Shown in pieces: positions 6,420 through 36,749 of a DNA stretch of 64,000 bases. The stretch comes from a virus (lineage: Duplodnaviria > Caudoviricetes). Where the stretch lies: the IMG/VR virus record IMGVR_UViG_3300023435_000009; one strand, given 5' to 3'. A program made the translations under genes and the position numbers. The notes under the pieces are model-generated. The model saw nothing but the letters and a program-made list of their open reading frames with translations. It had not been told where the DNA came from and did no database searches. Numbering within the stretch: the stretch's first letter is position 1; the number at the start of each line of letters is the position of its first letter.

Positions 6420-7336
6420 CGGATTACCCACAGGGGGATGGAACTCCTGATTGCCCAATTTGCAAAGGGCGTGGAGTAATCCCTCTGTCTATGGGATTGG
6501 ATCATCCCATAGACAGGACACAACCGTGCCCCTGCGTGATGGTGCGGGATGTAGCTCGGAACATTAACAGGGGGTGGAAGGGCCTCCTGTCCGCTGACCC
6601 CGTAGACCAGTCCCCTCTTCGAGGTGACGACCTTACCGAAAGCAACCTCAAGATCACAGGATCTCGCCCTACTTTCCGCAGTCACATGAAACATGTCGCT
6701 GCTCGAATGCCCCCGACCTGGGGTTTTCTCGTGGTGTCCGATGCGGATCTGATGGATGCCTGGTTGTCCTACAAGCTGGATGTCAAGGACGCTGACGTGG
6801 ATCAGATGCGACAGCGGGCTGATATCCAACGATATGATGCCTTGGTAGATCTTGTGGAACCCCCGGTCCTTCTGGTCCTTGTGTGCGGGGTCAAGGCTGC
6901 TCGGAACGAGGCGATGCCCGAGGTGTTGTTGGAGGCCCTGCGGCACCGGGAGCACCTCAACAAGGTGACCTGGGTGGTTGACTCGCCCTCGTATCCCCTG
7001 CAGGAAGGGCACATTTCGTACAGTCATTCAGTGGGGGAATTCCTGAGCGAGTGGGACAATCTGACATTGCCTGAGAAGACGGATGCGGCCTTCCCTGTGG
7101 TTCCCGGCGTCCCCTCTGGGGTAGTACCAACGACGAGGTCCCCATCCCGGACGAAACGCCCACCCATGCAGGAGGTGGCAGACGAGACGGCAGCAGCCTT
7201 TGAGGAGGAAGTTGCGGGGGGGTCACCTGTTAAGGTGGTTGGTCCCAGCCCCTTAGCAAATGGGACGTTCAGTATGCTGGATGGTACGGAGGGGGATGCC
7301 CCGGAGAAGAAGAACAAGTGGGGTAAAAAGCGATGA
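6416..7336 (+). CDS. DnaC/IstB-like helicase loader with degenerate ATPase motifs
   Basis: N-terminal CPICKG..PCPC zinc motif. The domain layout parallels DnaC/IstB, but the P-loop (GSRPTFRS) and Walker B (LLVLVCG) are degenerate. Coupled directly upstream of dnaB. Confidence 0.55.
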   Translation: MTDYPQGDGTPDCPICKGRGVIPLSMGLDHPIDRTQPCPCVMVRDVARNINRGWKGLLSADPVDQSPLRGDDLTESNLKITGSRPTFRSHMKHVAARMPPTWGFLVVSDADLMDAWLSYKLDVKDADVDQMRQRADIQRYDALVDLVEPPVLLVLVCGVKAARNEAMPEVLLEALRHREHLNKVTWVVDSPSYPLQEGHISYSHSVGEFLSEWDNLTLPEKTDAAFPVVPGVPSGVVPTTRSPSRTKRPPMQEVADETAAAFEEEVAGGSPVKVVGPSPLANGTFSMLDGTEGDAPEKKNKWGKKR

Positions 7337-10300: not shown

Positions 10301-11490
10301 TATCTCTGAGTGATGACCTGGCATATCTGCTTGGGGCTTGGCATGGGGATGGTTCTGTGAGACCCCATGGTGTTGCCTTCACGGAGAATCGAAAGGAAGT
10401 CACAATTGAAAGGTTGCTCATAAACTCGCTGGAAAGGGTGCATGGGGCAAAAAAGGTCGCCTGTTACCATTATGCCAGTCGGCCAGGGTCCTTTGACATG
10501 GAGTTGTACGACGCATCCTTTAAACGTTGGTTCGAGGACTTGGCGGAAAAAAGATGTGTTGCAGTACCTCGGATAGTGCGAGAAGCATCCCAACAGTCTG
10601 TCATTTTTTTCCTGAAAGGTCTTTTCGATACTGATGGTTGGATAAACAATCGGGGTATTATCGGAGTCTCCTCCAAAACGGATTCTCTCTTGCGACAGGT
10701 CCAACTGTTGTTCCAGGCCATGGGGATAGATTCGCATTTGTCGTCACGGCAACAGAAGCTGGAGGTAACGAATAAATCTTACACTGTATGGACTTTGCGG
10801 ATAAGGGGTTGGGAATCTTGTTGCTCCTTCGTTCGATTGGTGGGTTTCAGTGAGCCCTGGAAACAGGAACGAGCGATGAAGCGGTTGAATACCGTGCCGA
10901 AGAGGAAACGTTCGGATCAGGTCTACCCCTTCCCGAAGATGTTCCGGGCACTCGTAAAAAGGCATCTTCCGTATCGCTTGGTTAAGGATGGGACTGTTCG
11001 ACGGTCCTTATACAATCAGGTGCATCGTGTGAAACAAAGGGGTGTCGTTCCTGAGGACACCGTGCGGTACGTCCTGGACGTGTTACACCGTAGAGGTGTT
11101 CAGGATGAGGATGCAACCTTCCTCCAACAGATGTTGGACAACTGGCATGTGCTACAGGTTGTTGCGTGTGATCCTACGGGGGAGATTGCCCCTGTGTATG
11201 ACCTGGAGGTAGGGGGGGATCACGAGTACCAGACGGGGCCGTTGCTCTCCCACAACTGTGAGCGTTCCGCTGATGTGGTGACGGCATCTTGGATCGATGA
11301 GGAACTGTCAAAGGCTAACCGGGTGCAGTTCCAATGCCTCAAATCTCGTGACCAAAAGCCCTTCGAGATGTTCAACGCACGGGTAGAGTGGCCATGCCGG
11401 AGACTTCTCACAAGCAGCGATCCGGTTATGTCAGCGCAGCAGCAGGAATCGGTAGGGAATCAATTGGACAAGATTAAGAAACTGGACTGA
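7333..11490 (+). CDS. dnaB: Replicative DnaB-family helicase with two inteins
   Basis: Spliced motifs AAFTGGLK|ST, IFSLEM, VFVDHAGL, VVALFQINRE, SYSNE|CERSADVV, LKSRD. Confidence 0.9.
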   Translation: MKVLLRSCFMVGSGDPRKELYDNYFVLRSSGLEFNTNEDQVLWRHVQDFVRMHNHVPDNLSVRHHFEQLREDEIVKRLAHLSSLQVITRGDFITRVTDLAEERRIRLVGEVLQDAADIVRVGREFRSGKEVLKLKGPAAAIKYILDKSHDIVAPTLGGKLSGEVTRDGTDFQAEYKKIAENPRAGVGQHTGIFQMDTALNGAKRHELWVHAAFTGGLKCVAGDTRIFDLATGKLHTVFDLYTLGHAPLVHTLDEKSWEITRGQASTVVQSGVRPIFRITSKSGRQIRVSGNHPFLTPEGWINAEDLQPGSWVAMPGGMPGCTLLSPFSDEEIALIGYLLGDGHIKDDISFTNGNPEILDDFVRCLKALGYKEYAGTVKSRTASFRFMADRPSSRMIRVSKSTGNSPRHPWTSPLRLTLERLGLWGCTSGDKHIPLEMWQMTDKQVWVLLAALWAADGTVRTETSGRGRRPRPKAHYTTKSRRLAWDIQALLQRVGVSSTIAPINVLYQGEYRRYWTLLVTTNEGKRQFLSHVRIAGKGAFVKEALAAVSSNEGTDWVPPALLSEIDDSVRAKTRQGGWHYARHAKRKGAIQRDTAVRLALASANPIALKKVQSTIHWDRLVEIVPDGGEMTYDLSVPGTANFVANGFIVHNSTLMLNWAYNQAIWYKWNSLIFSLEMPYQQCRRLLYSMHSFHRKFDAIRHKMGLQKDPTSAVGLPYVNIRDGTLAEWHPEAEKFLEDFVIPDMNGIPVIKTKDPETGQPWFCDYGRIHIEVADPEKSDFTVIDMRQKAELLFSQDPFSLVFVDHAGLMAPRKWVSSTTDRLNEVIRDLKRMAMSFNKGQGLPVVALFQINREGYRSAMKSKDKGGVARYDLTHLSYSNECCKSLTLLRFARGAFPIREAVVGDRVWSNTGWKDVLGVYPQGDRPIWCVQTDRGSKLECTADHRVRVFREEQLEWEQVENLKPGDWLLGSRGGSFPEVTPVLPESWGNTVSLSDDLAYLLGAWHGDGSVRPHGVAFTENRKEVTIERLLINSLERVHGAKKVACYHYASRPGSFDMELYDASFKRWFEDLAEKRCVAVPRIVREASQQSVIFFLKGLFDTDGWINNRGIIGVSSKTDSLLRQVQLLFQAMGIDSHLSSRQQKLEVTNKSYTVWTLRIRGWESCCSFVRLVGFSEPWKQERAMKRLNTVPKRKRSDQVYPFPKMFRALVKRHLPYRLVKDGTVRRSLYNQVHRVKQRGVVPEDTVRYVLDVLHRRGVQDEDATFLQQMLDNWHVLQVVACDPTGEIAPVYDLEVGGDHEYQTGPLLSHNCERSADVVTASWIDEELSKANRVQFQCLKSRDQKPFEMFNARVEWPCRRLLTSSDPVMSAQQQESVGNQLDKIKKLD
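7987..9285 (+). mobile_element. Intein with LAGLIDADG endonuclease in DnaB P-loop (433 aa)
   Basis: CVAGDT...FIVHN|S; GYLLGDG and ALWAADG; block B SGNHPFLT. Confidence 0.93.
9973..11256 (+). mobile_element. Intein with LAGLIDADG endonuclease near DnaB motif H4 (428 aa)
   Basis: CCKSLT...LLSHN|C; GAWHGDG and KGLFDTDG; block B TADHRVR. Confidence 0.92.
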
Positions 11491-11501
11491 CGAGGACTAC
11501 A

Positions 11502-12851
11502 ATGAAAGACCTTTTTGACTTCCTTACCCCCGAGACGGACACCCCAGCGGAGACTTCGGTCAAGACCTCGGTGGAAACATCACAGGAGTGTCTGTTAGTT
11601 ACCCCTGAGTCCACCGCAGAAGTAGAACTCCCCCCTGAGGAGACCCCGATCGAGACTCCTGTGGAAACTCCTGTTGAGATCCTGGAGGAGACTCCAGTAA
11701 AGGCTCCGACTCCTGCTGTTGCAACAGGATACGAATCCAAGGAGGATCTGCTGGGTACCTGTTTGCCGCCGCAGACGGAGCCATGGGGTATCGAGGACTT
11801 GATCGACCCTGTACCTCCCGTTCAGGCAACGGGTTGGACGCCTCCAGAGGAGAAGCGGGACTTCGATTGGTCTACTCCTGAGTCCACCGCAGAAGTAGAA
11901 CTCCCCCCATATGCTTCGGAAGGGTGGACACCCCCGGATGATCTGATCAGCTATTTGTTGACCTTGATCTCCCCGCCGGACGAGAAGGCCCTTTATCTTG
12001 AGGACTTAGCGCTTATCAAGTGGGCTGAATGGGCCAAGCGCCCAGACAACTCGCTGTGCGGGTTGATCACACGGGGGACGCCCACCGATGAGCAGTCGAA
12101 GGAGTTGCACCGAGTCTTGAAACCTGGGGCACATCTCCTGCTTATCGCTCCTGATGCAGAACCGTGGGGATCGACGGGTGCTTGCAGTGTAGAGGATTCC
12201 GGGTTCGAGATCAGGGACGCCATTGCCATTGCCCTGCCGTTGGATGAGTTGGCGAAGCTTCCCTCAGCGAGCACACCACCTTGTCATCCTTTCCACTACG
12301 TTCCCAAGGCCGACAGGGGCGAGCGGGAACTGGGCTGTGATGCCCTGGGTGGGAAGAGCGGAGCGGAGGCCGTAGGTCGGAAGGAGGGGGACGCTGGAAC
12401 CGCTCACGGTGCGGCGGGGGCCGGGCACGGTAACAGCAGAATTCGGAACTTTCATCCAACGGTAAAACCCGTTGATTTAATGGTAAAAATCCTCCATGAC
12501 GTGCCCAAGACCCCTGAGGATTTCGAGGTGCCTACCCCCACGGTGGACACTAAGGCGTCGGACGTGCTGGACCCCTATATGGTCCTCGATCCCTTCCTGG
12601 GTTCCGGGTCCACAGGGCTGGCGTGCATGGAGACAGGCCACAATTTCAGGGGGATGGAGCGGGAGGAACCCTATTTGGAGATCGCCACCGCTCGGGCCGA
12701 ACTGTGGCGCAGCAGGCTCGGAGCGAAGAAGGGTTCCGCAACCCTTCTCGGTGACGAGGGAAGTCGTCCCATCATCATTTCGGACGTGGGCACCACCCTG
12801 TTGGTCACGGAAGAGCCTCAGGAAGAGCCTGAACTCGATGTGTTTTTCTAG
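11502..12851 (+). CDS. Beta-class N4/N6 DNA methyltransferase SAM-binding module (C*) with degenerate DPPY segment and acidic Pro/Glu/Thr N-terminus
   Basis: FHYVPKA..NFHPTVKPVDLM..VLDPFLGSGSTG..FRGMEREEPY. Upstream RVLKPG..DSGFEIRD is present, but LCGLITRGTP stands where IVxDPPY is expected. Confidence 0.85.
   Translation: MKDLFDFLTPETDTPAETSVKTSVETSQECLLVTPESTAEVELPPEETPIETPVETPVEILEETPVKAPTPAVATGYESKEDLLGTCLPPQTEPWGIEDLIDPVPPVQATGWTPPEEKRDFDWSTPESTAEVELPPYASEGWTPPDDLISYLLTLISPPDEKALYLEDLALIKWAEWAKRPDNSLCGLITRGTPTDEQSKELHRVLKPGAHLLLIAPDAEPWGSTGACSVEDSGFEIRDAIAIALPLDELAKLPSASTPPCHPFHYVPKADRGERELGCDALGGKSGAEAVGRKEGDAGTAHGAAGAGHGNSRIRNFHPTVKPVDLMVKILHDVPKTPEDFEVPTPTVDTKASDVLDPYMVLDPFLGSGSTGLACMETGHNFRGMEREEPYLEIATARAELWRSRLGAKKGSATLLGDEGSRPIIISDVGTTLLVTEEPQEEPELDVFF
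11604..11908 (+). repeat. 32-bp exact direct repeat (11604-11635 and 11877-11908) encoding PESTAEVELP
   Basis: CCTGAGTCCACCGCAGAAGTAGAACTCCCCCC read twice. Confidence 0.95.
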
Positions 12852-12860
12852 GGGGACATT

Positions 12861-13583
12861 GTGGGCGCTTACAGTTGCACACAGCTTCAACTTGGGGACT
12901 GCACAGTGCTGATGGATGCTCTCCCGGAGGGTTCCGTGGGGGCCATCGTTTGTGACCCACCTTACGGCTTGGAGTTCATGGCCCTTGACTGGGAGAAACT
13001 TGGAGACAAAGTCCCCAAGTCCATCAGGAACTTCAAGGGGTTCAAAGAAGGCGATGGTGCCCTTCGGTTACCCAAGTATTCATCCACCTCTCGGTACAGC
13101 ACTCCCAACAGAACGTGTTCAGTGTGTGGTGGGATGGAGCGGGGGACACGGCGCAAATGTCCCTGTGAGAGACCCCACGATCATTGGAAGCCTATTGGGA
13201 AGCGGCGCAAGCTGCCTGAGGACACCCCAGATGGTGTGACAGGTGGTGGGATGCAGGATCATCTCCTGGCCATTGGTCTGTGGCACACTCTCTGGTTGAA
13301 GAGCGCCCTGCGAGTACTCCAGCCAGGTGGGATTGCTAAGATTTTCAGCGGAACGAGAACGTTCCACAGGCTGGCTTGGGCGATGGGAGAGGCCGGGTTT
13401 GAGATCCTACGGATCGATGCCTGGACCTATGGTTCAGGCTGGCCCAAGTCCCTGGATGTTGGGCGGTCCATGCGGAAACGGTTGGGTCTCCCTGATGACA
13501 GTCCCGTCCTGTGCGACGGATATGGCACAGCATTGAAGTCCTGCTGGGAACCTTTCCTAGTAGGGAGGAAGGCATTGGTATGA
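12861..13583 (+). CDS. Split MTase catalytic module A1 (DPPY half, no SAM-binding motif)
   Basis: QLGDC..IVCDPPYGLEFM..RVLQPGG..YGSGWPKS..GYGTALKSCWEPFLVGRK, then stop. Confidence 0.88.
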   Translation: MGAYSCTQLQLGDCTVLMDALPEGSVGAIVCDPPYGLEFMALDWEKLGDKVPKSIRNFKGFKEGDGALRLPKYSSTSRYSTPNRTCSVCGGMERGTRRKCPCERPHDHWKPIGKRRKLPEDTPDGVTGGGMQDHLLAIGLWHTLWLKSALRVLQPGGIAKIFSGTRTFHRLAWAMGEAGFEILRIDAWTYGSGWPKSLDVGRSMRKRLGLPDDSPVLCDGYGTALKSCWEPFLVGRKALV

Positions 13584-14200
13584 GAAAACTCCTTCAGTTA
13601 CAACTCGGAGACAGCGCCCGATTGATGCGGGATCTCCCGGAGGGGTGCATCGGAGCCGTCATCTGCGATCCTCCCTACGGACTGGAATTCATGGGGAAGA
13701 GCTGGGATGCCCCCTGGAAAGAAGTGGGCATGGAACCGGAGAACACTGAGGAATACACGGGGTGTGCCTCCGACAGCCGTGCCTTTCAGGAGTGGGCAAC
13801 GATCTGGTTGCGTGAGTGCCATCGTGTCTTGCAACCAGGGGGCCTCATCAAGGTTTTCGGTGGCACACGAAAATACCACCGGATGGGTGCGGCGATGGTT
13901 CAGGCAGGGTTCGAGATCGAACGCCTGGAAGCCTGGGTTTATGGTTCGGGTTTCCCGAAGAGCCTGGATGTCGCCAAGGCCCTGGACAAGTCGCTTGGTG
14001 CTGAACGGGAGGTTCTCTCCACCCGCAAGGGTCATGGGAACACCGGCTCCGGGTGTTACAACTGGAACAACCCGGATGACCTGACTGATCGTTCTGTGGT
14101 CCCTATCACGGAGCCTGCCTCGGACAGCGCCAAGAAATATAAGGGATATGGAACAACGCTGAAACCAGCGTGGGAGCCCTTCCTGGTGGGGCGAAAATGA
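13580..14200 (+). CDS. Split MTase catalytic module A2
   Basis: ATGA-coupled start. VICDPPY..GSGFPKS..GYGTTLKPAWEPFLVGRK, then stop. Confidence 0.88.
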   Translation: MRKLLQLQLGDSARLMRDLPEGCIGAVICDPPYGLEFMGKSWDAPWKEVGMEPENTEEYTGCASDSRAFQEWATIWLRECHRVLQPGGLIKVFGGTRKYHRMGAAMVQAGFEIERLEAWVYGSGFPKSLDVAKALDKSLGAEREVLSTRKGHGNTGSGCYNWNNPDDLTDRSVVPITEPASDSAKKYKGYGTTLKPAWEPFLVGRK

Positions 14201-14628
14201 TCGTGATCACCGTCGCCAGGAAGCCTTTAGAAGGTTCCGTTGCCACTAACGTGCAACGATGGGGCACAGGCGCTTTGAACATCGATGCTTGTAGACTGGA
14301 AATTGGGGACACAGAACGGGCAGTTATAGACAGTCGTAGCGGAGGTACCTCTGTTGACTATGACTGGCAGGGTCCAGTGGTGATGAGATCGGTTGGGGAA
14401 CGGTACACCTCACATGTTGCCGGAAGGTGGCCCTCTAACTTCATCCTCCAGGGAGATTGCTCCGTCAGGGAGTTAAACAATCAGAGTGGCGTTACGAAGA
14501 ACGGCGGGTCAAACGCCAACAAGTTGGTCGTTGGGCTGGGGGTCGTTGGCTGGTGTACCGGGAGTGCCACGAACTATGCGGGTGACGTCGGTGGGGCATC
14601 CAGGTTCTTCAAACAGGTAACGAGATGA
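14197..14628 (+). CDS. Split MTase middle module B1
   Basis: MIVITVARKPLEG..GTGALNIDACR..GRWPSN..GGASRFFKQV. Confidence 0.85.
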   Translation: MIVITVARKPLEGSVATNVQRWGTGALNIDACRLEIGDTERAVIDSRSGGTSVDYDWQGPVVMRSVGERYTSHVAGRWPSNFILQGDCSVRELNNQSGVTKNGGSNANKLVVGLGVVGWCTGSATNYAGDVGGASRFFKQVTR

Positions 14629-15392
14629 TAACCCAGTTTCAACTTGGGGACTGTGTTGCCCTGATGAAGTCAATGTCCGAGGGGTCCGTAGGCTCCATCG
14701 TCAGTGATCCTCCCTATGGGCTGGAGTTCATGGGGATGCAGTGGGACAAGCTCGACACGGGCGACAGCCACGTTGGGCAGATGAGCAACAGCGGGTTCTC
14801 CACCGGCACCGGACCCAACGCTGGGCGACCCAACTATGGGGCCAGCGCCAACCTCAAGTGTCGGACCTGTAACCGCTGGCTTTGGGATCAGGAGAAGCGG
14901 AAGTGCCAGTGTGCCATTCCCGACCTTCCTAACTTCAAAGCGATCCAGAACAGGACCATCCAACAGTGGCATGAGGGCTGGTTGTCTGAGGCTCTTCGTG
15001 TCCTGCGGCCCGGTGGGCTCATTAAGGCATTCAGCAGCCCCCGGCTGTTCCACAGGCTGGCGACAGCGATGACCAATGCCGGGTTCGAGGTGCTCCGCTT
15101 GGAGGCTTGGGTGTATGGCTCAGGGTTCCCCAAGAACCACAACATTTCCAGGGCCATTGACATGACCAAGGGGGTCTTTGACCAGCGGAAGGTCATAGGG
15201 CACAAAAGGGGCGTCATGGCACTAGACAGTCTCGGTTTCGGTGGGATCGCACGGGGGGTGGTAGGGGCGCACCAAAAGGCCACTGACGTGCCCGTGACGG
15301 TCCCAGCGTCTCCTGAGGGTCTCCGCTTCTGGGGCTACGGAACTGCCCTCAAGTCCTGTTGGGAGCCTTTCGTGGTGGGGAGGCGGGCGTGA
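14625..15392 (+). CDS. Split MTase catalytic module A3
   Basis: IVSDPPY..GSGFPKN..GYGTALKSCWEPFVVGRR. Confidence 0.88.
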   Translation: MITQFQLGDCVALMKSMSEGSVGSIVSDPPYGLEFMGMQWDKLDTGDSHVGQMSNSGFSTGTGPNAGRPNYGASANLKCRTCNRWLWDQEKRKCQCAIPDLPNFKAIQNRTIQQWHEGWLSEALRVLRPGGLIKAFSSPRLFHRLATAMTNAGFEVLRLEAWVYGSGFPKNHNISRAIDMTKGVFDQRKVIGHKRGVMALDSLGFGGIARGVVGAHQKATDVPVTVPASPEGLRFWGYGTALKSCWEPFVVGRRA

Positions 15393-15841
15393 TCATCATC
15401 ACAGTCGCCAGGAAGCCCCTGGACGGGACAGTTGTTGCTACGGTTCTCACATGGAGTGCCGGGGGGCTGAACATCGACGGTTGTCGAGTTACTGGTGTTC
15501 CACCCTCCGTCCCACAATGGAACAGAGCGGCTGGAAATGCTCCCTTTGACGCAGACGGTAGAAACGGCAGGATGTCTCAACCATCACAGTTGGGACGTTG
15601 GCCTTCTAACTTGATCCTCTCCCATGCACCCGGTTGCGGAGTAGACTGTGAAGGAGGTTGTCCCGTGTCCGAGATGGCTCGCCAGGGAGACCTTGTGGGA
15701 AGCCACAGTGCAGGAAGTCAGAAGGCTCCGCAATATGGTCCGAGTCAGCATCCCGATTGGTTGTTCAATGGTTTCGGTGCAAATGCCCGCATAGGGGATA
15801 CAGGCTCTGCGGCTCGGTTCTTCAAACAGGTGAAGCGATGA
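15389..15841 (+). CDS. Split MTase middle module B2
   Basis: GTGA-coupled start. ITVARKPLDG..LNIDGCR..GRWPSNL..AARFFKQV. Confidence 0.85.
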   Translation: MIIITVARKPLDGTVVATVLTWSAGGLNIDGCRVTGVPPSVPQWNRAAGNAPFDADGRNGRMSQPSQLGRWPSNLILSHAPGCGVDCEGGCPVSEMARQGDLVGSHSAGSQKAPQYGPSQHPDWLFNGFGANARIGDTGSAARFFKQVKR

Positions 15842-16302
15842 TCGTGATCACCGTCGCCAGGAAGCCTTTAGAAGGTTCCGTTGCCACCAACGTGCAACGA
15901 TGGGGCACAGGCGCTTTGAACATCGATGCTTGTCGGGTCGGCTCGGAACCGATTACGGTCAACAGGTGGGATGACGGCTCTAAGCCCTTCGGCGGGGGTG
16001 CCGGGCACTCCTACCACCCCGAGACCTTCACGGGCCGCTGGCCTGCTAACCTGATCCTCTCCCATGCACCTGGCTGCGGAGTAGACTGTGAGGGGGATTG
16101 TCCCGTGCCTGAGATGTCCCACCAGGGGGCGCTTGTGGGTGCTCACAGTGCAGGAAGCCAAAGGGCACCTCAGTACGGTTTGAGTCAGCATCCCGATTGG
16201 TTGTTCAATGGTTTCGGCGCAAACGCCCGAGTAGGGGACACAGGCTCGGTGGCTCGGTTTTTCAAACAGGTGAGTGATTCCCATGCCAATGTACGAATAT
16301 AG
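15838..16302 (+). CDS. Split MTase middle module B3 (B1/B2 chimera)
   Basis: 5' end nearly identical to B1; 3' part collinear with B2. Confidence 0.85.
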   Translation: MIVITVARKPLEGSVATNVQRWGTGALNIDACRVGSEPITVNRWDDGSKPFGGGAGHSYHPETFTGRWPANLILSHAPGCGVDCEGDCPVPEMSHQGALVGAHSAGSQRAPQYGLSQHPDWLFNGFGANARVGDTGSVARFFKQVSDSHANVRI

Positions 16303-16462
16303 CTGCCCTGATTGCGAGCATGATTTTGAACAGCTTGTCAAAGTAGACGACCCGACCCTTCCCTGTCCCAAGTGCGGGGGGGACCAGGTCCAGAAGAAGG
16401 TCTCCCAGTCCACCTTCAAGCTGGCAGGCGGCGGCTGGGCAAACGACGGATACTCCTCATGA
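16283..16462 (+). CDS. FmdB-family zinc ribbon protein
   Basis: MPMYEYSCPDCEHDFE..CPKCGG..SxSTFKLAGGGW. Confidence 0.88.
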   Translation: MPMYEYSCPDCEHDFEQLVKVDDPTLPCPKCGGDQVQKKVSQSTFKLAGGGWANDGYSS

Positions 16463-17130
16463 TCGTACAGCTTCAACTGGGGGACTGTGTAGAGCGGATG
16501 AAGACCCTCCCAGATTGCTCCATCGGGGCGGTGGTCAGCGATCCTCCTTATGGGCTGGAGTTCATGGGTGAGGACTGGGACAAGTTAGACATGCGGGGGA
16601 GCGCTTCCCGTCCGAACACATCCGAGTCCTCCACCTCTCGTTCTACGAGGGGGATGAATCACGGCATCCATGCGGGCAAACCTGCGTTGGATCTGACGTT
16701 GGATTCCCAGCGGGCGATGCAGGCGTGGCACCTTCAGTGGCTCCAGCAAGTCCACCGCATCCTTCAGCCAGGAGGGATCGCCAAGATATTCAGTGCCACC
16801 CGGACCTTCCACAGGCTCGCTGGAGCGATGACCGAGGCTGGATTGGAGATCCTCCGTCTGGAGATCTGGGACTATGGTTCAGGTTTCCCGAAGGGCCTCG
16901 ACGTGCCCCGTGCCTTGGATAAGCATCTTGGGGTTGAGCGCACTGTAGTGGCGGTAGGGCAACGCAAAGGTCGCTGTCCCCAGCCGATGTGGTGGGAGCA
17001 GGAAGACACTGTCGGTCAGCAGTGGGACATCACGGCCCCGACCTCCCCCCAGGCCCAGAGCTATGCTGGGTACAACACAGCGCTCAAGCCTGCGTGGGAA
17101 CCCTTCCTGGTAGGGAGAAAACCGCTGTGA
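16459..17130 (+). CDS. Split MTase catalytic module A4
   Basis: VVSDPPY..GSGFPKG..GYNTALKPAWEPFLVGRKPL. Confidence 0.88.
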   Translation: MIVQLQLGDCVERMKTLPDCSIGAVVSDPPYGLEFMGEDWDKLDMRGSASRPNTSESSTSRSTRGMNHGIHAGKPALDLTLDSQRAMQAWHLQWLQQVHRILQPGGIAKIFSATRTFHRLAGAMTEAGLEILRLEIWDYGSGFPKGLDVPRALDKHLGVERTVVAVGQRKGRCPQPMWWEQEDTVGQQWDITAPTSPQAQSYAGYNTALKPAWEPFLVGRKPL

Positions 17131-17756
17131 TCATCCAATACCAACTCGGGGACTGCGTTACTCTGATGCAGGAGCTTCCTGACGAGTCTGTGGGGGTTGT
17201 GGTCTGTGATCCACCTTACGGCCTTGGTTTTTTGAATCAGGAGTGGGATCACTTCCGAGACGGGACACAGGGATGGCACTCACAGTGGTTAGGGGAGGCA
17301 TTTAGGGTGCTCCAACCGGGGGGTCTCATCAAGGTGTTCACTGCCCCTAAGCTGATGCATCATTTGATAGTTGCGATGTCCTTTCAGTCCTTTGAGATCC
17401 TACATGTGGAGGCCTGGCTATATGGTAGCGGTTTCCCCAAATCACTGAGTGTCTCCAAGGCTGTAGACTCAGAGGTGTTGACGGGAAAAAGCAACTCGGT
17501 GGCTCTGGCTGTCAGCGAAAAAACTCGTCCTGTCGTAGGCCACAACCGTCGGGTCATTTCTGCGGGTCGGACGAAAGAGAATGAGGGATTACACGGGGGA
17601 GCAGCCTATTGGGAGCGTTGGAACAACTACCACCAGGGGGACGTTCCAGTCACGGTTGCTCGGAGCGATATAGCCCGGACCTTTGACGGTTACGGTACAT
17701 CTCTTCGTCCGGCCTGGGAGTCGTTGGTTGTAGCAAGGAGACAGGCATGTCTCTAG
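17127..17756 (+). CDS. Split MTase catalytic module A5
   Basis: GTGA-coupled start. VVCDPPY..GSGFPKS..GYGTSLRPAWESLVVARR. Confidence 0.86.
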   Translation: MIIQYQLGDCVTLMQELPDESVGVVVCDPPYGLGFLNQEWDHFRDGTQGWHSQWLGEAFRVLQPGGLIKVFTAPKLMHHLIVAMSFQSFEILHVEAWLYGSGFPKSLSVSKAVDSEVLTGKSNSVALAVSEKTRPVVGHNRRVISAGRTKENEGLHGGAAYWERWNNYHQGDVPVTVARSDIARTFDGYGTSLRPAWESLVVARRQACL

Positions 17757-18556
17757 TGCAACTTCAACTCGGGGACTGTGTAGAGAGGATGAGGGCTCTT
17801 CCTGATTGTTCCATCGGGACGCTCGTCAGTGACCCCCCCTATGGCTTGGAGTTCATGGGTCGGGAGTGGGACAAGCTCGAACCCCGCCGCAATCAGCAGC
17901 GCTGGAAAGGCACGGAACGGAAACTCATCGGGGACGGGTCCGGCGTCGGCGGTGACTTCGGGGCCAGGATGGGTGAGCTACCCTCCTACATCCCGAAGCG
18001 GAATGATCACTGCACCAAGTGCGGACACTACAAGTTCAGCGGGAACCCCTGCGTGTGTCCCACGCCCGAGTGGGAGAACCGGACGCTAGAGCACGTCGCC
18101 GCAATGCAAGCGTGGCACGAGGAGTGGCTTCAGGAGGTCTACAGAATCCTTCATCCCGGCGGGATCGCTAAGATCTTCAGTGGGTCTCGGACGTTCCATC
18201 GGTTGGCCGCAGCGATGGTTGCCGTGGGATTCGAGATGCTGCGGATCGAAGCGTGGGTTTATGGATCCGGCTTCCCGAAGTCCCACGACGTCTCACGGGC
18301 CTTGGACAAACACCACGGAGCGACACGAGCGATGGTTCGGATCGTGGGTAGTGGTGCCGGTCGGAACCCGAAGAGTATCGCCGGGGGCGAGGACATAGAG
18401 GGTGGGGATCGACCCTGGATGAGGCTCGCTCGGGAGCAGGGGTACTATGACAAAGAGGGTGGCGTCCCTGTGACTTCTGACGCCATCCGATGGGTGGGTA
18501 GGGGTACAGCCCTAAAACCCGCCTGGGAGCCCTTCCTGGTTGCAAGGAGGCCATGA
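17747..18556 (+). CDS. Split MTase catalytic module A6
   Basis: LVSDPPY..GSGFPKS..GRGTALKPAWEPFLVARRP. Confidence 0.88.
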   Translation: MSLVQLQLGDCVERMRALPDCSIGTLVSDPPYGLEFMGREWDKLEPRRNQQRWKGTERKLIGDGSGVGGDFGARMGELPSYIPKRNDHCTKCGHYKFSGNPCVCPTPEWENRTLEHVAAMQAWHEEWLQEVYRILHPGGIAKIFSGSRTFHRLAAAMVAVGFEMLRIEAWVYGSGFPKSHDVSRALDKHHGATRAMVRIVGSGAGRNPKSIAGGEDIEGGDRPWMRLAREQGYYDKEGGVPVTSDAIRWVGRGTALKPAWEPFLVARRP

Positions 18557-18843
18557 TGCCAGATCTTAGTGACATGGAGTGGGTCGTTTCCTATACGTCC
18601 CGAGGTTCAGAACTCGTCCACGAGACGGCTGCGGAATGGGACCAGCAGATCAAATCGCTCCCAACCTTTGCCCCACTAGACGACATCTACGCCGAGTTAG
18701 GACGACTCGGACGACCGGACATGGTTGACATTTTGAAGAAGGCCAGCATCGGGTTGGACGGAAAGGAACTCAACGCCTTGGTGGAGCTAATCCGGGCGGG
18801 AGTCTACTGGCAAGAAGGTCAGATGGAGTACAAACACCGATGA
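18553..18843 (+). CDS. Hypothetical protein embedded in MTase array
   Basis: ATGA-coupled on both sides. Confidence 0.65.
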   Translation: MMPDLSDMEWVVSYTSRGSELVHETAAEWDQQIKSLPTFAPLDDIYAELGRLGRPDMVDILKKASIGLDGKELNALVELIRAGVYWQEGQMEYKHR

Positions 18844-19496
18844 TTATCATCACCGTAGCCCGTAAACCTCTGAGTGGTACTGTAGCCCAAACTGTGCAGG
18901 AGCATGGAACGGGCGCACTGAACATTGACGGTTGCCGCATCTCTACCGAGGGCGAGTCATTCGTGACCCCGTTGATCTCCTCTGTGGACAACCGGACGGG
19001 AGGAGACCGAGACCTGACCTTCTGGAGTCGGTCCAATGATGAGAGGTTTAAACAAGCCCAGCGGGAGAGCATCGAGCGGACTCGTTCACTGGGTCGGTGG
19101 CCCGCCAACCTGATCATCCAACATTCAGTGGATTGTACTTGCCGGGGCCAAAAGAGGGTAAAGGGGACCAACAATGCTTCTCTCGTCAATACGGTCGCCG
19201 GATCTCTCCCAACGAAGGTGGGGGCAGTAGGATTGAAAAGAGACGCTCCCGGAATCTATGGGTATTCCGACGCAGAGGGCATGGAGACGGTTCCTGACTG
19301 GCATTGTGATCTAGGGTGCCCCGTTTTGATGTTGGATGCCCAGAGCGGTGTTCACAAGTCTCCTCCTGTAGATCGTGGGGCGGATCGGGACAAGATCTCA
19401 GGGGGCACGGGTGCCTGCTACTGCTTCGCTGGACAGTCCCCAGGGTATGGTGACGTCGGTGGGGCATCCAGGTTCTTCAAACAGGTGAAGCGATGA
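18840..19496 (+). CDS. Split MTase middle module B4
   Basis: MIIITVARKPLSG..LNIDGCR..GRWPANL..GGASRFFKQV. Confidence 0.85.
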   Translation: MIIITVARKPLSGTVAQTVQEHGTGALNIDGCRISTEGESFVTPLISSVDNRTGGDRDLTFWSRSNDERFKQAQRESIERTRSLGRWPANLIIQHSVDCTCRGQKRVKGTNNASLVNTVAGSLPTKVGAVGLKRDAPGIYGYSDAEGMETVPDWHCDLGCPVLMLDAQSGVHKSPPVDRGADRDKISGGTGACYCFAGQSPGYGDVGGASRFFKQVKR

Positions 19497-20092
19497 TCGT
19501 GATCACCGTTGCCAGGAAGCCCTTGGAGGGCACTGTGGCCCAAACTGTGATGGGATACGGAACGGGTGGTCTGAACATTGGTGCCTGTCGCCTCCGAACC
19601 ACTGAGGTGGGGAAGGAGCGGGAGTACAAGGACCGGGAAGATCGAGAGAACTGGCGGATCACTGGAGGCTCCACGGGGAGTGGGGCGACATCCTCTGCGG
19701 GACGTTGGCCTGCTAACCTGATCCTCCAGCATCACCCTGACTGCGTTCGGTTGGGGACGGTGATGGTGGATGGTTTCAAGGGGCACACGGTCAAGGAACA
19801 AGCGGATGGTCACATCCAGTTCAACCACAAACCTCCTGGTTACGAGAAGGTGAACCACACGGATGCGGATGGGAAGGAGCCGGTGGAGACGTGGCATTGT
19901 GCTCCGGGTTGCCCCGTTCAGGCCCTGGATGGACAGAGTGGTGTTTCCACGAGCCAGGTTAGAGTAGAAGAGGGGGCAGGGGAGCATCTTGATCCCTCCC
20001 GAGAGGACTGGCGCTTCAAGAGAGTCCCTGGCGGTTATGTGGATACCGGGGGAGCATCGAGATACTTCAAAAGGATCGGAGGTCGATCATGA
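19493..20092 (+). CDS. Split MTase middle module B5
   Basis: MIVITVARKPLEG..GRWPANL..GGASRYFKRI. Confidence 0.85.
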   Translation: MIVITVARKPLEGTVAQTVMGYGTGGLNIGACRLRTTEVGKEREYKDREDRENWRITGGSTGSGATSSAGRWPANLILQHHPDCVRLGTVMVDGFKGHTVKEQADGHIQFNHKPPGYEKVNHTDADGKEPVETWHCAPGCPVQALDGQSGVSTSQVRVEEGAGEHLDPSREDWRFKRVPGGYVDTGGASRYFKRIGGRS

Positions 20093-20640
20093 TCGTTATC
20101 CATGTTGCAAGAAAGCCCCTCATCGGGTCCGTGGCCAAGAACGTTCTGGCACATGGCACAGGAGGTCTGAACATCGACGGTTGTCGGATCGGTTCAGACG
20201 AAGCGGGCTGGGGTGGACGTGGGGGTGGCCTCAAGAACTGGAACGACAAGGGGGTCGGAATGAAGGAGGGTGCTGCTCGTCCCGTCGTTGGACGTTGGCC
20301 CGCCAACCTTGTGTTGGAGCACACCCCACAGTGCAAACTGAAGGGGCGTCGTCCGATGTCTACCCTTGACGTTGTAGAACAGGGCACCATCGTGGATAGT
20401 GCAGGTTATGTGGAGATCTGGGATTGTGTGGAGGGGTGTCCCGCCAAGGAGACCGTCACACAAGGTGGCAGTTCCGACTTCTTCTTCCAGGTCCAGGGTA
20501 TTGAAGACCCGCCGGAGTACAGCCACGCCGCTGGGGATGTCGTCTGTCAAACGTGTGGGAAGCCCTACAGCGAGCATCCCCTGGATGCCCGTTATGACTG
20601 GCTGAACGTATTGTGTGATGGGTCGCTGGTGAAACTCTAG
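20089..20640 (+). CDS. Split MTase middle module B6 with extra Cys/His tail
   Basis: MIVIHVARKPLIG..LNIDGCR..GRWPANL..GGSSDFFFQV, followed by CQTCGKPYSEH. Confidence 0.83.
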   Translation: MIVIHVARKPLIGSVAKNVLAHGTGGLNIDGCRIGSDEAGWGGRGGGLKNWNDKGVGMKEGAARPVVGRWPANLVLEHTPQCKLKGRRPMSTLDVVEQGTIVDSAGYVEIWDCVEGCPAKETVTQGGSSDFFFQVQGIEDPPEYSHAAGDVVCQTCGKPYSEHPLDARYDWLNVLCDGSLVKL

Positions 20641-21596
20641 GAAACCTTCCTGATGATCCGTTTGACGTGGCGACCCTTGTCCAACGTCCCTGGTTCCACC
20701 AGAACTTTAGTCCCGATTTTCAACCGGAGTTCCCTGAGACAGGTGTTGCAGATCCACCGGGTTGTTCCATCATCCAGCCACACCTTAATCGAAGCGACAT
20801 TCCCACAGGCTTGGGCGCTGATGATATCTGCGAAGGCCCTGTTCCTTTTGTTCGTGGCGACGTCCTTTTTTCGCACCACCCCGCATTTGCCCTTATGCGG
20901 TTTCGGAGGAGCATATTCTTCGGTCCTTTGGTACTCGAAGATGTACCGCACGATCACCTGATCGGGTGAGTAGACGACATTCTCATCGTGTTTGAGCTTC
21001 CCACCCCAGCTTGAGGTATGGCCCGCCACCCCGGCTACCGAGTGGAACCCTTCGGCTTGTACCTTGTCCAGGGTGTACTTTGTCGGGGACGGGCACTCCA
21101 GCACTTTTCCCAGGGCCGCATCCACCTGGAGGATATAGCAGGCATCTCCGCCACGGTATCGCCAGCCCCAGCCCGTGTATCCGAAGGCCTTGGTGGGGGA
21201 TCCCATGTAGATGCCGGAACCGAACAGGCAACCGCCTCGGCCCGTCTGCAAGCCCTTTCGGGTGATGTCCCCGATGTTGCGCGAGGTGGTCCCGTGGTAA
21301 AGGGATCGGACGTTCCCGACTTCCTGTGTCACCTCCGCAAAGAGGGCCTCCTGTTCCTCGGTGTTCTTGACCACCCAGGCTGCGGAACAAATGTAGCCCC
21401 GGTACCGAGGAGCCAGACTCCGTCGTGCCTTCCCGATGGCCAGAGGTTTGCCCTTCTCTTTGAACTCGGCCAAGACCCGGATCTTCCCCAGTGGGATGGG
21501 TTTGGGCGGTGGTGGGTCCGGCGGGACAGTACGAGGATCGATCCTTTTGCTCTGGGGTCGGCTCTTCCCGCTGCTCCTGTTCTTTCGTTTGCCCAT
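20637..21596 (-). CDS. PARP-catalytic-domain ADP-ribosyltransferase (H-Y-E type)
   Basis: LYHGT..GL..FGSGIYM..KAFGY..VDAALGK..SVAG..DENVVY..Q, plus a C-terminal Cys cluster. Confidence 0.8.
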   Translation of the reverse strand: MGKRKNRSSGKSRPQSKRIDPRTVPPDPPPPKPIPLGKIRVLAEFKEKGKPLAIGKARRSLAPRYRGYICSAAWVVKNTEEQEALFAEVTQEVGNVRSLYHGTTSRNIGDITRKGLQTGRGGCLFGSGIYMGSPTKAFGYTGWGWRYRGGDACYILQVDAALGKVLECPSPTKYTLDKVQAEGFHSVAGVAGHTSSWGGKLKHDENVVYSPDQVIVRYIFEYQRTEEYAPPKPHKGKCGVVRKKDVATNKRNRAFADIISAQACGNVASIKVWLDDGTTRWICNTCLRELRLKIGTKVLVEPGTLDKGRHVKRIIRKVS

Positions 21597-36194: not shown

Positions 36195-36749
36195 ATGCGA
36201 TTAGGTCAGTTAGAGTTGATCTGCGGCTGCATGTTTTCGGGAAAAACGGTGAAGTTGATACACCGTTTACAAAATGCACAGAACGATCAACAGCACACAC
36301 TAGCAGTAAAGCCCCAAACGGACACCCGTTCAGGGGGGCGATTAGCTTCTCATGTGCAATCCGAATTTCCTGCAACGGAGGTGGGGTGCGCTGCGGAAAT
36401 CCTTAGCCTTGTTCATCGGGAACCTCACGTGGATGTTGTGGGGATAGACGAGGCTCAGTTTTTCGATTCCGACATTGTGCCCGTGTGTCAGTCCATGGTT
36501 GACCGAGGTATCCGGGTCATTGTGGCAGGGTTGGATCTGGATTACCGTGGGGTGCCTTTTGGCTCGATGCCTCAACTGCTCGCCCTGGCTGACAAATTTC
36601 TCAAGCTCACTGCCATCTGCACCGTGTGTGGTGGTGAGGCGACTAGATCCCAGCGTTTGACCGAGTCAACGGAACAGATAGAGTGCGGGGCTAAGGCCGA
36701 ATACGCAGCCCGGTGCCACGAACACTTCACACCCCCAAAGGAGTCCTGA
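36195..36749 (+). CDS. tdk: Thymidine kinase (type II)
   Basis: GCMFSGKT, GIDEAQFF, GLDLDYRG.PFG, KLTAICTVC, YAARC. Confidence 0.95.
   Translation: MRLGQLELICGCMFSGKTVKLIHRLQNAQNDQQHTLAVKPQTDTRSGGRLASHVQSEFPATEVGCAAEILSLVHREPHVDVVGIDEAQFFDSDIVPVCQSMVDRGIRVIVAGLDLDYRGVPFGSMPQLLALADKFLKLTAICTVCGGEATRSQRLTESTEQIECGAKAEYAARCHEHFTPPKES

Follow-up and report, generated by a model that had tools for sequence, protein, structure and literature searches.

Type I and AhdI-type M/S enzymes combine a gamma-class HsdM with HsdS, whose fold comprises two target-recognition domains (TRDs) and a coiled coil. Among beta-class enzymes, the MettL3-MettL14 and MTA1-MTA9 heterodimers place a catalytic unit beside a partner with an eroded motif IV (PMC7544214). 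Separately encoded fragments are known from the C5-methyltransferases: M.AquI and M.EcoHK31I are naturally split, and M.SssI has been engineered for fragment complementation, in which cuts between motif VIII and the TRD complement best and overlapping fragments work (PMC3404938). Finally, according to the summaries of Trautner et al. 1996 in PMC7544214 and PMC12707154, the Bacillus phages SPR, phi3T and rho11s encode multispecific C5-methyltransferases.

Here we describe an array of methyltransferase (MTase) parts at positions 11502-20640 of the window, by which we mean the whole 64,000-nucleotide stretch of DNA that was analysed. The source is a huge salt-lake phage, and the array is located inside its replication gene block. 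We found no published description of a three-part split MTase array in the literature, and the conserved and selected split-array design of this phage is apparently undescribed. With interchangeable MTase parts, a small number of genes could shield the phage genome at a wide range of sequences.

Results

The array contains 15 genes, all co-directional: one gene for a shared AdoMet-binding subunit (C*), six catalytic halves (A), six target-recognition-type modules (B), a zinc ribbon and an orphan reading frame, X (Table 1). ORF coordinates agree with the gene order listed in an earlier note on this DNA, which had also remarked on near-universal ATGA/GTGA coupling; 4-nt overlaps of this type occur at 11 of the 14 junctions, and the other three consist of one gap of 9 nt and overlaps of 10 and 29 nt. 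The sequence blocks that the note ascribed to each module type are likewise present. All six A modules contain DPPY and end in WEPFLVGRK or a variant (WESLVVARR in A5), and all six B modules start with MI[VI]I[TH]VARKPL, continue through NI[DG][AG]CR and GRWP[AS]N, and end in an RFFKQV-like block, with tails past that block in B3 and B6. HPTVKP and FLGSG are restricted, within the array, to C*. When aligned to Pfam N6_N4_Mtase (221 positions), as the note had suggested, all six A modules match positions of about 3-90, the motif-IV half (three above and three below the curated cut-off), and C* matches positions 156-220, the AdoMet half. No Pfam family was matched by the B modules or X. Identity between paralogues of the array is 34-52% for A and 31-67% for B.

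Table 1. Coordinates and characteristics of the array features within the window
Feature	Position	Strand	Characteristics
C*	11502..12851	+	449 aa; Pfam N6_N4_Mtase positions 156-220, E 1.4e-11
C* N-terminal region	11502..11948	+	low-complexity, acidic; 36-nt direct repeat (D10)
Cdead, truncated MTase-like domain	11949..12314	+	GLITRGTP in place of DPPY (eroded motif IV)
Csam, AdoMet-binding half	12441..12734	+	HPTVKP helix, strand beta1 with DPFLGSGST, strand beta2; Pfam match
A1	12861..13583	+	DPPY; CxxC...CxC insert; 77% identical to positional orthologue in L091
A2	13580..14200	+	DPPY; shortest A; Pfam E 5.2e-9; L091 orthologue 74% identical
B1	14197..14628	+	target-recognition-type; first 96 nt 99% identical to those of B3, last 49 nt 94% to those of B4
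A3	14625..15392	+	CxxC...CxC insert; dN/dS vs L089 0.034; L091 orthologue 73% identical
B2	15389..15841	+	target-recognition-type; GTG start; dN/dS 0.25; 62% aa identity to L089 counterpart
B3	15838..16302	+	mosaic, B1-like head and B2-like tail; dN/dS 0.285
FmdB-type zinc ribbon	16274..16462	+	62 aa; Pfam Zn_ribbon_8, E 1.2e-14
A4	16459..17130	+	catalytic half; dN/dS 0.048 vs L089; L091 orthologue 78% identical
A5	17127..17756	+	exchangeable catalytic half; Pfam E 3.5e-8
A6	17747..18556	+	CxxC...CxC insert; dN/dS 0.10 vs L089; L091 orthologue 76% identical
X	18553..18843	+	orphan ORF, 96 aa
B4	18840..19496	+	target-recognition-type; dN/dS 0.125
B5	19493..20092	+	target-recognition-type; dN/dS 0.066; L091 orthologue 53% identical
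B6	20089..20640	+	target-recognition-type; Cys-rich C-terminal tail; dN/dS 0.059

C* consists of an acidic, Pro/Thr-rich disordered N-terminus, a catalytically eroded MTase-like domain (Cdead) and a true AdoMet-binding half (Csam). Residues 1-150 include 34 D/E versus 6 K/R, together with 24 P and 21 T, and the N-terminal region is 45 residues shorter in the relative P0253. Across the C* family, motif IV of Cdead has the consensus GLIxxGxPT (56 sequences), and the Csam motifs DPFLGSGTTG and HPTVKP are nearly invariant; the protein as a whole is 61% identical to C* of the related locus L091. The earlier reading of C* as a bare SAM module was right about the AdoMet half, on the Pfam match, but not about its being bare, as the degenerate A-like domain with its GLIxxGxPT consensus is also present. 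In principle, this domain could fill the AdoMet half itself and so compete with A.

Two genes stand apart from the three module types. The zinc ribbon is 100% identical in the related locus L089 and absent from L091, and its homologues occur near intact MTases in L102 and L127. X matched no family in Pfam or PHROG, had no homologue in the fetched loci outside this genome, and is missing between A6 and B4 in L089; it probably does not belong to the core of the system.

The break points are best read against single-chain relatives. In most of 80 fetched viral loci, DPPY, ARKPL, NIDGCR, GRWPAN, RFFY, HPTVKP and FxGSG follow one another in one chain, and the homologue order given in the earlier note is therefore real. 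Intact phage homologues run A-B-Csam, the closest solved relative of an intact homologue is CcrM (E 7.7e-23), and B corresponds to the variable region between the A-type and AdoMet halves in more than 500 single-chain phage homologues. The phage of the window itself also encodes two intact MTases. The strand EP(F/I)(L/V)V(G/A)RK(PL) closes A and is repeated where B begins, and a natural A-B-C* fusion retains both copies. One enzyme divided at the same two places is thus upheld, but a clean cut is not, because A and B each carry a copy of the junction strand.

The same split recurs elsewhere. L089 and L091 have syntenic arrays, flanked by DnaB on one side and PARP/primase/PolA on the other, so that the split points, when sought in relatives, prove conserved in diverged phages from independent assemblies. 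In every case found in other contigs, a C*-type gene adjoins free A and B genes (for example in L074, L093, L094, L096-L101 and L107). Natural fusions take the forms B-B-B-C* (P0001/L095), B-C* (L099, L100 and L107) and A-B-C* (L096), and tandem B domains share one chain in P0001, P0006 and P0020. Inteins of relatives fall in conserved motifs, between HP and TVKP of C* (as in P0253) and between YG and SGFPKS of A. Free modules are also abundant: B4 matches 2424 proteins of similar size (E <= 1e-5), and among the matches listed most are 200-220 aa and matched over their whole length. The split design is a widespread phage family and not peculiar to this genome.

Tandem enzyme fragments are the expected product of decay or of frameshift errors, and the array might on that ground be taken for the debris of several intact MTase genes or for an artefact of assembly or sequencing. 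The evidence already contradicts this reading, which is almost certainly wrong. The dN/dS values called for in the earlier note range from 0.03 to 0.29 across all ten modules compared between the window and L089, indicating purifying selection like that on the flanking genes (0.10 and 0.235). The break points are identical in the diverged relatives, and free proteins of the B and C* types number in the thousands elsewhere. As for mis-assembly, which the note had named as a danger, the contigs of four salt-lake runs show full identity to the window and span the whole stretch with no indel and no joint; these independent contigs run across the gene junctions and are interrupted only at internal repeats. 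The note's argument against random decay holds, and the pieces are supported as functional rather than decayed.

A and B were both amplified, as the note had it, but their variability is uneven, with B evolving much faster than A. Positional orthologues of A1, A2, A3, A4 and A6 in L091 are 73-78% identical, and those of B4-B6 only 45-56% (56% for B6, which carries the same tail there, matching phrog_11394). A5 is the exception among the A modules: it shares only 41% identity with the A that occupies its position in L089, and no orthologue was found in L091. B3 is a mosaic: a 96-nt stretch shares 99% identity with B1, and a 242-nt stretch shares 84% with B2. We propose that B modules turn over fast via replacement and recombination.

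Such footprints, including the 94% identical 3' ends of B1 and B4, would also be expected of a DNA-level cassette library, in which silent donor modules are recombined into one expressed site by a shufflon-like process or gene conversion. We consider this very unlikely, given that each module is translationally coupled and begins at a start codon of its own, all lie on one strand with no recombinase gene adjoining, the four-run contigs contain no joints or rearranged forms, and purifying selection extends over the full length of the modules. Programmed frameshifting, hopping or protein splicing could instead join neighbouring modules into single chains; the A2/B1 junction (CGA AAA TGA) could permit a -1 slip into the B frame, and the genome is rich in inteins. 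Yet read-through of A A B A B B ... A A A X B B B yields no A-B-C chains, a fusion would duplicate the junction strand, the module ends have no intein boundary residues, and the same 4-nt overlap is found at A-A, B-B and B-A junctions, which leaves such recoding with a minute probability.

Co-folding, also suggested in the earlier note, was carried out with three chains, C*(150-449), B1 and A2. The median ipSAE is 0.75 versus 0.45 for the best control; 58 of 80 solved complexes attained the mark, as did 2 of 110 mismatched pairs. A control with C* replaced still gave 0.45. At least 80% of contacts are common to the runs, and partner pLDDT is 71. In the model, the DPPY strand of A2 lies beside the motif-I strand of C*, the lowest-error contacts being C* 212-215 with A2 24-28 (beta1 beside beta4) and C* 234-236 with A2 7-8 (beta2 beside beta3). 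Cdead residues 72-95 are predicted to contact A2 residues 96-104, and the B1 interface comprises residues 1-6, 25-31 and 78-82. The model supports A and C* rebuilding the canonical fold, but the ipSAE value may reflect likeness to solved single-chain MTases, because the fold is the one that these enzymes have.

Modelled alone by AF2, the C* fragment reaches pLDDT 90-98 at residues 1-70. Two half-domains (residues 1-92 and 119-280) match MTases only when taken apart, with Cdead matching parts of class I MTases at Z 5-6.6 and C* matching whole beta-MTases at a TM of about 0.2. B4 alone is predicted to fold poorly, with a disordered N-terminal strand.

These single-chain models bear on whether B, and perhaps A, act outside any MTase as DNA-binding decoys, regulators or inhibitors of host restriction or methylation enzymes, with C* as an unusual stand-alone MTase. 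A and B do occur as free proteins in thousands of cases, and C* has its own full set of secondary-structure elements. We nevertheless regard this as improbable: motif IV of C* is eroded family-wide, an isolated B is predicted to fold badly and to leave its N-terminal strand loose, the parts are linked in natural B-C* and A-B-C* fusions, and DPPY of A is invariant and under purifying selection.

Discussion

We propose that the array probably encodes a three-component beta-class DNA amino-methyltransferase, likely N6-adenine-specific, that assembles non-covalently; the DNA (rather than RNA) substrate and the adenine target are suggested by family membership. Of the two halves of the Rossmann fold, C* would give the AdoMet-binding one (the HPTVKP helix, the FLGSG-bearing strand beta1 and strand beta2) and A its complement (strand beta3, the DPPY-bearing strand beta4 and strands beta5 to beta7), so that one catalytic domain would be rebuilt from the two. 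B would dock on A as the target-recognition domain, through its N-terminal strand and its conserved NIDGCR and GRWPAN anchors, and read DNA with its variable loops. Cdead may pack against A and take the place of the second protomer that beta-class dimers usually have. From a single C* together with six A and six B, the phage could then obtain several methylation specificities, at least six, whose likely purpose would be to protect phage DNA from host restriction.

How freely the modules combine is a separate question. Each A might bind one B, six fixed pairs sharing C* and giving six rather than up to 36 specificities. Equal counts in the window (three A and three B, then three A and three B) and the A B A B C* order of L094 fit such pairing, as do the zinc-ribbon-like inserts that distinguish A modules and the five A paralogues kept as distinct orthologues (73-78%), which are not interchangeable copies. 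B outnumbers A in most other arrays, however (at least 7 B to 2 A in L074, 3 to 1 in L093, 2 to 1 in L107 and 6 to 5 in L091), so some A must serve several B, and A and B have changed independently between the window and L089. We therefore hold fixed pairing to be possible but doubtful; a B count that usually equals or exceeds the A count implies that B modules share A/C* cores.

Five A paralogues are each kept as orthologues, and the copies are therefore not redundant; if A were merely a catalytic half, one should suffice, so A must do something more, with partner choice, flanking-base reading and the target base as candidates.

The closest known enzymes are single-chain phage beta-class N6_N4 amino-MTases of the PHROG 67 type, with an ARKPL/NIDGCR/GRWPAN/RFFY insert, which have the same motifs in the same order and are 35-50% identical to the array modules; A and Csam align to the two halves of CcrM (PDB 6PBD), the nearest solved relative. 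In contrast to these, the array has the three regions as separate genes in 6, 6 and 1 copies, its junction strand is duplicated, and its AdoMet part adds an eroded MTase-like domain. Two-piece forms exist under the PHROG label 'DNA methyltransferase', phrog_6025 being A only and phrog_3008 B plus Csam; we found no functional description of them. Their A/B break point is the same as that of the array, and B1, B4 and B6 match the head of phrog_3008, but they comprise one A and one B-Csam without Cdead, with no arrays and no shared subunit.

Among more distant systems, the split C5-MTases are, like the array, built from separately encoded fragments, and both the best M.SssI cut site and its fragment overlap match the A/B junction; they consist of two single-copy fragments without amplification, shared subunit or dead domain (PMC3404938). 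The predicted contact of Cdead with A recalls the eroded partners in MettL3-MettL14 and MTA1-MTA9, but Cdead is truncated and fused to an active AdoMet-binding half, and the active fold is made of two chains (PMC7544214). In Type I and AhdI-type M/S systems a separate, fast-evolving, recombining specificity subunit plugs into the methylase, as B would; there the catalytic fold itself is unsplit, and B matches no Pfam family, Methylase_S included. Finally, the Bacillus phage C5-MTases, as summarized in the accounts cited above, carry several target-recognising domains on one catalytic core and provide several anti-restriction specificities, as proposed here, and the relatives with tandem B domains in one chain (P0001, P0006 and P0020) resemble them. 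Those enzymes are of the cytosine-C5 class with their TRDs in one polypeptide, whereas the array encodes its TRDs and catalytic halves as individual proteins.

Organization and family assignment of the array

The array's 15 genes all lie on the + strand and run C*, A1, A2, B1, A3, B2, B3, Zn, A4, A5, A6, X, B4, B5, B6, where A modules are catalytic halves, B modules are of target-recognition type, C* is the shared AdoMet-binding subunit (449 aa), Zn is an FmdB-type zinc-ribbon gene, and X is an orphan ORF. At 11 of the 14 gene junctions the neighbors overlap by 4 nt (ATGA or GTGA); of the remaining three, one is a 9-nt gap and two are longer overlaps, of 10 and 29 nt. All six A modules contain DPPY and terminate in WEPFLVGRK or a variant of it. 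B modules begin with MI[VI]I[TH]VARKPL, continue through NI[DG][AG]CR and GRWP[AS]N, and end, in all six cases, in an RFFKQV-like block. The stretches separating these anchors are variable and very unequal in length, and paralogues are 34-52% identical within A and 31-67% within B. This gene order, the near-complete ATGA/GTGA coupling, and the module motifs had been claimed in an earlier note from the sequence alone, and ORFs, junctions, and Pfam matches bear them out in every checkable detail.

The Pfam family N6_N4_Mtase (PF01555) is matched by all six A modules at positions ~3-90 of its 221 (three of the six above the curated cut-off) and by C* at positions 156-220; B lies between these two parts in single-chain homologues, as the alignment suggested in the earlier note now makes visible. 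No Pfam family was found for any B module (E <= 0.01) or for X, hence no HsdS/Methylase_S match, and the MTase matches of the array are to N6_N4_Mtase only, not to the cytosine-C5 type (motifs PCQ, ENV). In beta-class amino-methyltransferases (MTases), motif IV, (D/S/N)PP(Y/F/W), lies N-terminal to the target recognition domain (TRD), and motifs X and I (FxGxG) lie C-terminal to it. The array keeps this order (DPPY in A; HPTVKP and FLGSG in C*) but spreads it over three proteins: no ORF within 11502-20640 combines DPPY and FxGSG, and none of the array proteins holds the complete fold in one polypeptide. Enzymes of this family use AdoMet to methylate adenine N6 or cytosine N4 of DNA; the use of DPPY instead of SPPY in A is, we presume, a hint at adenine as the target base. 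One promoter-like site lies directly before C*; because terminator-like sites in the array scan were not above chance, we make no claim of an operon.

Coordinates of the array, its parts, and associated features
Feature	Location	Strand	Remark
DnaB-type helicase	window 7333-11490	+	upstream of array
Methyltransferase array	window 11502-20640	+	15 genes
C* acidic N-terminus	window 11502-11948	+	150 residues
36-nt direct repeat	window 11600-11635 and 11873-11908		within C* N-terminus
Cdead	window 11949-12314	+	eroded MTase-like domain
Csam	window 12441-12734	+	AdoMet half
Zinc-ribbon gene (Zn)	window 16274-16462	+	FmdB-type
ORF X	window 18553-18843	+	96 aa
B6 C-terminal tail	window 20515-20640	+	Cys-rich
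PARP-family ADP-ribosyltransferase-like gene	window 20637-21596	-	directly after array
Intact N6_N4 MTase	window 36713-38089	+	other subfamily, same genome
Intact N6_N4 MTase	L002:814-2556	-	other subfamily, same genome
Locus with intein in A module	L096:6133-8055		
Distant zinc-ribbon homologue	L102:1819-1986		adjoins intact same-family MTase
Distant zinc-ribbon homologue	L127:2405-2575		adjoins intact same-family MTase
Enzyme split inside B	L141:8735-10414		two ORFs

Single-chain homologues and the identity of B

A profile of the six B modules retrieved 15,284 cluster representatives at E <= 0.001 from 1.84 billion proteins, and it occurs at more than 586 places in viral contigs. In nearly all of 80 fetched loci, the B-like stretch sits inside one ORF of ~370-500 aa with DPPY upstream and HP(T)xKP and FxGSG downstream, the one-chain order that the earlier note gave for long phage homologues. 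The nearest solved relative of an intact homologue is CcrM (E 7.7e-23), which aligns with its A part and C part, not with B. Since B falls outside the CcrM alignment and the B-like stretch lies between DPPY and HP(T)xKP, sequence comparison identifies B as the variable, putatively target-recognizing insert of a beta-class amino-MTase, specific to this family. The B profile has no match among PDB sequences at E <= 1. Folded alone, B4 gave a model (pLDDT 65, pTM 0.48) too poor for a fold search and with a disordered N-terminal strand, which fits a module in need of a partner. A megablast search of the array against 50,697 phage records returned no match.

The C* subunit and the modeled complex

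C* represents a large family: ~100 proteins of 250-340 aa among its best matches cover 83-100% of the query, and the search gave 4291 matches at E <= 1e-5, intact enzymes among them. The N-terminal family consensus features a conserved helix, DLxxYLxTLISPP, and a strand, GLIxxGxPT, in place of DPPY, followed by RVLKPGAHLLLIAP and EDxGFEIRDA; we interpret this region as an A-like domain, eroded and shortened, and name it Cdead. In the AdoMet half, Csam, HYVPKAxRxERE is followed by a linker and then by HPTVKP and DPFLGSGTTG, both nearly invariant. The earlier count of six A, six B, and one SAM-binding module holds, but the last is no bare SAM module. When the C* profile was run against 185,579 reference prokaryote genomes (one per species), no C*-type gene was recognized at that sensitivity, only matches to the Csam part or to intact enzymes (best E 1e-12). 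The N-terminus of C* is Pro/Thr-rich, with 34 D/E versus 6 K/R, includes a direct repeat, and is 45 residues shorter in the relative P0253; it is possibly a spacer or a DNA mimic.

An AlphaFold2 model of C* residues 150-449 reached pLDDT 81. Its halves match MTases only apart (residues 1-92 and 119-280; Z 5-7, VIA-align), and Foldseek matched beta-class MTases only locally (TM ~0.2 to whole enzymes); the model thus faintly hints that the fold is not simply Csam completed by Cdead. When C*(150-449), B1, and A2 were modeled as three chains, with A2 as the scored partner, the median ipSAE was 0.75 versus 0.45 for the best control, in which A2 and B1 were kept and C* was replaced. In the calibration of the tool, 58 of 80 solved complexes attained the ipSAE mark, as did 2 of 110 mismatched pairs. 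Three runs had at least 80% of contacts in common, with a partner pLDDT of 71. The lowest-error contacts join C* 212-215, the strand before FLGSG, to A2 24-28, the strand before DPPY, and C* 234-236 to A2 7-8. These are the canonical beta1-beta4 and beta2-beta3 pairings of the class I MTase sheet, from which we infer that A and Csam would together restore a single catalytic domain in trans. In the model, Cdead residues 72-95 lie against A2 helix 96-104, and B would dock on A, with B1 meeting the C-terminal strand of A2 (186-202) via its N-terminal strand (1-6), its NIDAC region (25-31), and its WPSNF region (78-82). Co-folding, as the earlier note had suggested, predicts the canonical fold from A and C*, but this pass may reflect likeness, because solved single-chain beta-class MTases have the same fold; the model supports binding rather than showing it.

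Gene orders, fusions, and inteins in related loci

HMMs for A, B, Cdead, and Csam were run on all fetched loci. Ordinary phage contigs encode A-B-Csam as one ORF, and wherever a Cdead-Csam gene is present, free A and B genes accompany it, in some loci with B-C* fusions.

Module order in fetched viral loci
Locus	Order
L089	A B B Zn A A A B B B
L091	C* A A B A A A B B B B B
L074	B x6, C*, A, A, B
L093	B, B, A, B, C*
L094	A, B, A, B, C*
L098	B, A, B, C*
L099, L100	A, then B-C* fusion
L107	A, B-C* fusion, B
L095 (P0001)	B-B-B-C* fusion, then A
L096	A, A, A-B-C* fusion, B

The B-C*, B-B-B-C*, and A-B-C* fusions are Rosetta-stone evidence for joint action of A, B, and C*. The A-B-C* fusion of L096 is informative for the junction strand, EP(F/I)(L/V)V(G/A)RK(PL), present at the A end and again at the B start: it is kept twice in tandem (EPIIVCRK, then LIYIGRKPL), and the duplication is therefore a structural feature of the split system, not a gene-calling accident. 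The earlier picture of one enzyme cut at the same points in all copies stands as to the conserved split; the cut is not a clean one, the junction strand occurring in both A and B. Overall, the array probably encodes a trans-assembling three-part MTase, and the interpretation first given to it is supported with four amendments, namely the dead domain of C*, the overlapping junction strand, the widespread family, and the hypothetical standing of the figure of 36 combinations.

Inteins typically sit at functionally critical, conserved sites. One interrupts HPTVKP (between HP and TVKP) in the C* relative P0253 (749 aa; 93% identical in the query region), and others interrupt YGSGFPKS (between YG and SGFPKS) in A modules of L096 and P0020; the window's own A and C* copies are intein-free. 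Frameshift fusion of modules and split-intein splicing were both considered and rejected.

Four relatives (P0001, P0002, P0006, and P0020) carry two to five B domains, or repeated B halves, in tandem in one chain (e.g., A-B-B-B-Csam and B-B-B-C*) and are candidate multispecific beta-class MTases. In L141, the enzyme is split inside B, with A and the B head in one ORF and the B tail and Csam in the next, which may reflect either another fission event or breakage of the gene.

Conservation, selection, and module turnover

The source IMG/VR record is 125.7 kb and rated 24% complete, and an identical C* protein occurs on a 528 kb contig; the carrier is a huge phage, found in salt-lake metagenomes. 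Two independent assemblies, L089 and L091, have syntenic split arrays between DnaB and PARP/primase/PolA genes, the occurrence in relatives that the earlier note had proposed to look for. Between the window and L089, dN/dS of the modules compared is 0.03-0.29 (flanking primase 0.10, PARP 0.235), unlike the ~1 named there as a sign of pseudogene debris. Mis-assembly, another doubt raised there, finds no backing: contigs of four runs reproduce the array stretch with breaks only at internal B repeats, and no rearranged forms, joints, or indels were seen in them. The only loose end, at 15833 in run X19, matches the start of the zinc-ribbon gene; it is the B3 3' end aligned on paralogue B2 rather than a deletion variant. 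By these comparisons, the split is both conserved and selected.

Module turnover is visible even at the short distance to L089, where A3, A4, A6, and Zn are 98-100% identical and A5, B2, B3, and B4 are 41%, 62%, 75%, and 83% identical, respectively. Relative to the more distant L091, C* is 61% identical; A1, A2, A3, A4, and A6 each have an evident orthologue in the matching position (73-78%), and B4, B5, and B6 are only 45-56% identical to theirs. B thus changes far more rapidly than A, as would be expected of a specificity element. DNA-level mosaics also point to recombination among B modules: B1 and B3 are 99% identical over their first 96 nt, B2 and B3 have 242 nt in common at 84%, and B1 and B4 are 94% identical over their last 49 nt. 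The A paralogues are old and individually maintained.

Such long conservation of five distinct A orthologues favors cognate A-B pairs, or at least non-redundant A modules, as do the Cys-rich inserts in which the A modules differ and the equal A and B counts in the window and L094. Shared cores are favored instead by the excess of B over A in most arrays, by systems consisting of one A, one B-C* fusion, and one more free B, and by the independent exchange of A and B between the window and L089. We consider it less likely than not that exchange is fully free, with every B, and perhaps every A, interchangeable on one C* core and the duplicated junction strand serving as a common docking element. 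If it were true, thirteen small genes would yield as many as 36 sequence specificities, a phage would change its specificity by swapping one 0.5-kb cassette, and huge phages would have in such arrays a widespread epigenetic counter-defence that is programmable and combinatorial.

Neighboring and accessory genes

The upstream DnaB-type helicase (1385 aa) appears to be broken up by two intein-like inserts with LAGLIDADG-type segments; its L091 orthologue is 528 aa with a DnaB_C match only. The PARP-family gene keeps its position in L089 and L091. The zinc-ribbon gene is 100% identical in L089 though its neighbors differ, and it is absent from L091. The Cys-rich tail of B6 matches phrog_11394 (unknown function) and is also kept in the L091 B6 orthologue. 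ORF X has no PHROG family and no homologue in the fetched loci beyond this genome; it is missing at the same place in L089 and so looks like a recent insertion. Besides the split system, the same genome encodes two intact N6_N4 MTases of other subfamilies and so has more than one methylase.

Significance and comparison with known systems

If the parts assemble as modeled, huge phages would answer many restriction systems economically, with one common cofactor-binding subunit and only the small specificity and catalytic parts multiplied. Among natural beta-class amino-MTases, the array would be the first in three pieces, with a dead domain built in, and in phage metagenomes it would account for thousands of 200-aa hypothetical proteins that lack annotation (free B) and for "partial methylases". 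For technology, it would offer ready-made fragments that complement each other naturally and, for targeted or multiplexed DNA methylation, a large stock of recognition modules that can be exchanged. The literature searched, including a jumbo-phage genomics review and a beta-class review in which the word "split" is absent (PMC7544214), gives no description of split beta-class MTases or such arrays, though absence there is not proof.

None of the named near designs unites a beta-class fold split three ways with amplified A and B subunits and an AdoMet subunit that is shared and carries a dead domain. Single-chain phage homologues belong to the same N6_N4_Mtase family but hold in one protein the whole enzyme, which no array protein does. 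The PHROG two-piece forms phrog_6025 and phrog_3008 are near designs, already catalogued yet undescribed. Type I-like M/S methylases use an HsdS-family specificity subunit, whereas array B modules are without a Methylase_S match. Multispecific phage MTases of the SPR/phi3T type, which are C5 enzymes of Bacillus phages, carry tandem TRDs in one polypeptide with a single catalytic core, an arrangement seen in P0001, P0006, and P0020 and not in the window, where each B is a separate ORF. Beta-class enzymes are commonly dimers with division of labor; motif IV is eroded in the partner proteins MettL14 and MTA9 (PMC7544214). Cdead, too, has an eroded motif IV and in the model contacts A, and it may play a partner role of this kind; it is, however, truncated and fused to the AdoMet half, whereas the MettL3-MettL14 type has a full-size paralogous partner packed against the active subunit.

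Finally, split MTases of the M.AquI/M.EcoHK31I type, like the array, divide one fold among separate neighboring genes kept by selection, but they are cytosine-C5 enzymes, whereas the array has N6_N4_Mtase matches only. Fragments of that type associate and are all required for activity; for the array, the complex model predicts association. M.AquI and M.EcoHK31I are natural two-chain enzymes, and for M.SssI complementation is most effective with a cut between motif VIII and the TRD, overlapping fragments also being functional (PMC3404938). By analogy, these C5 cases show that active enzymes of such a split design are possible, and the overlapping-strand junction of the array resembles the solution that protein engineers reached for split C5 enzymes.
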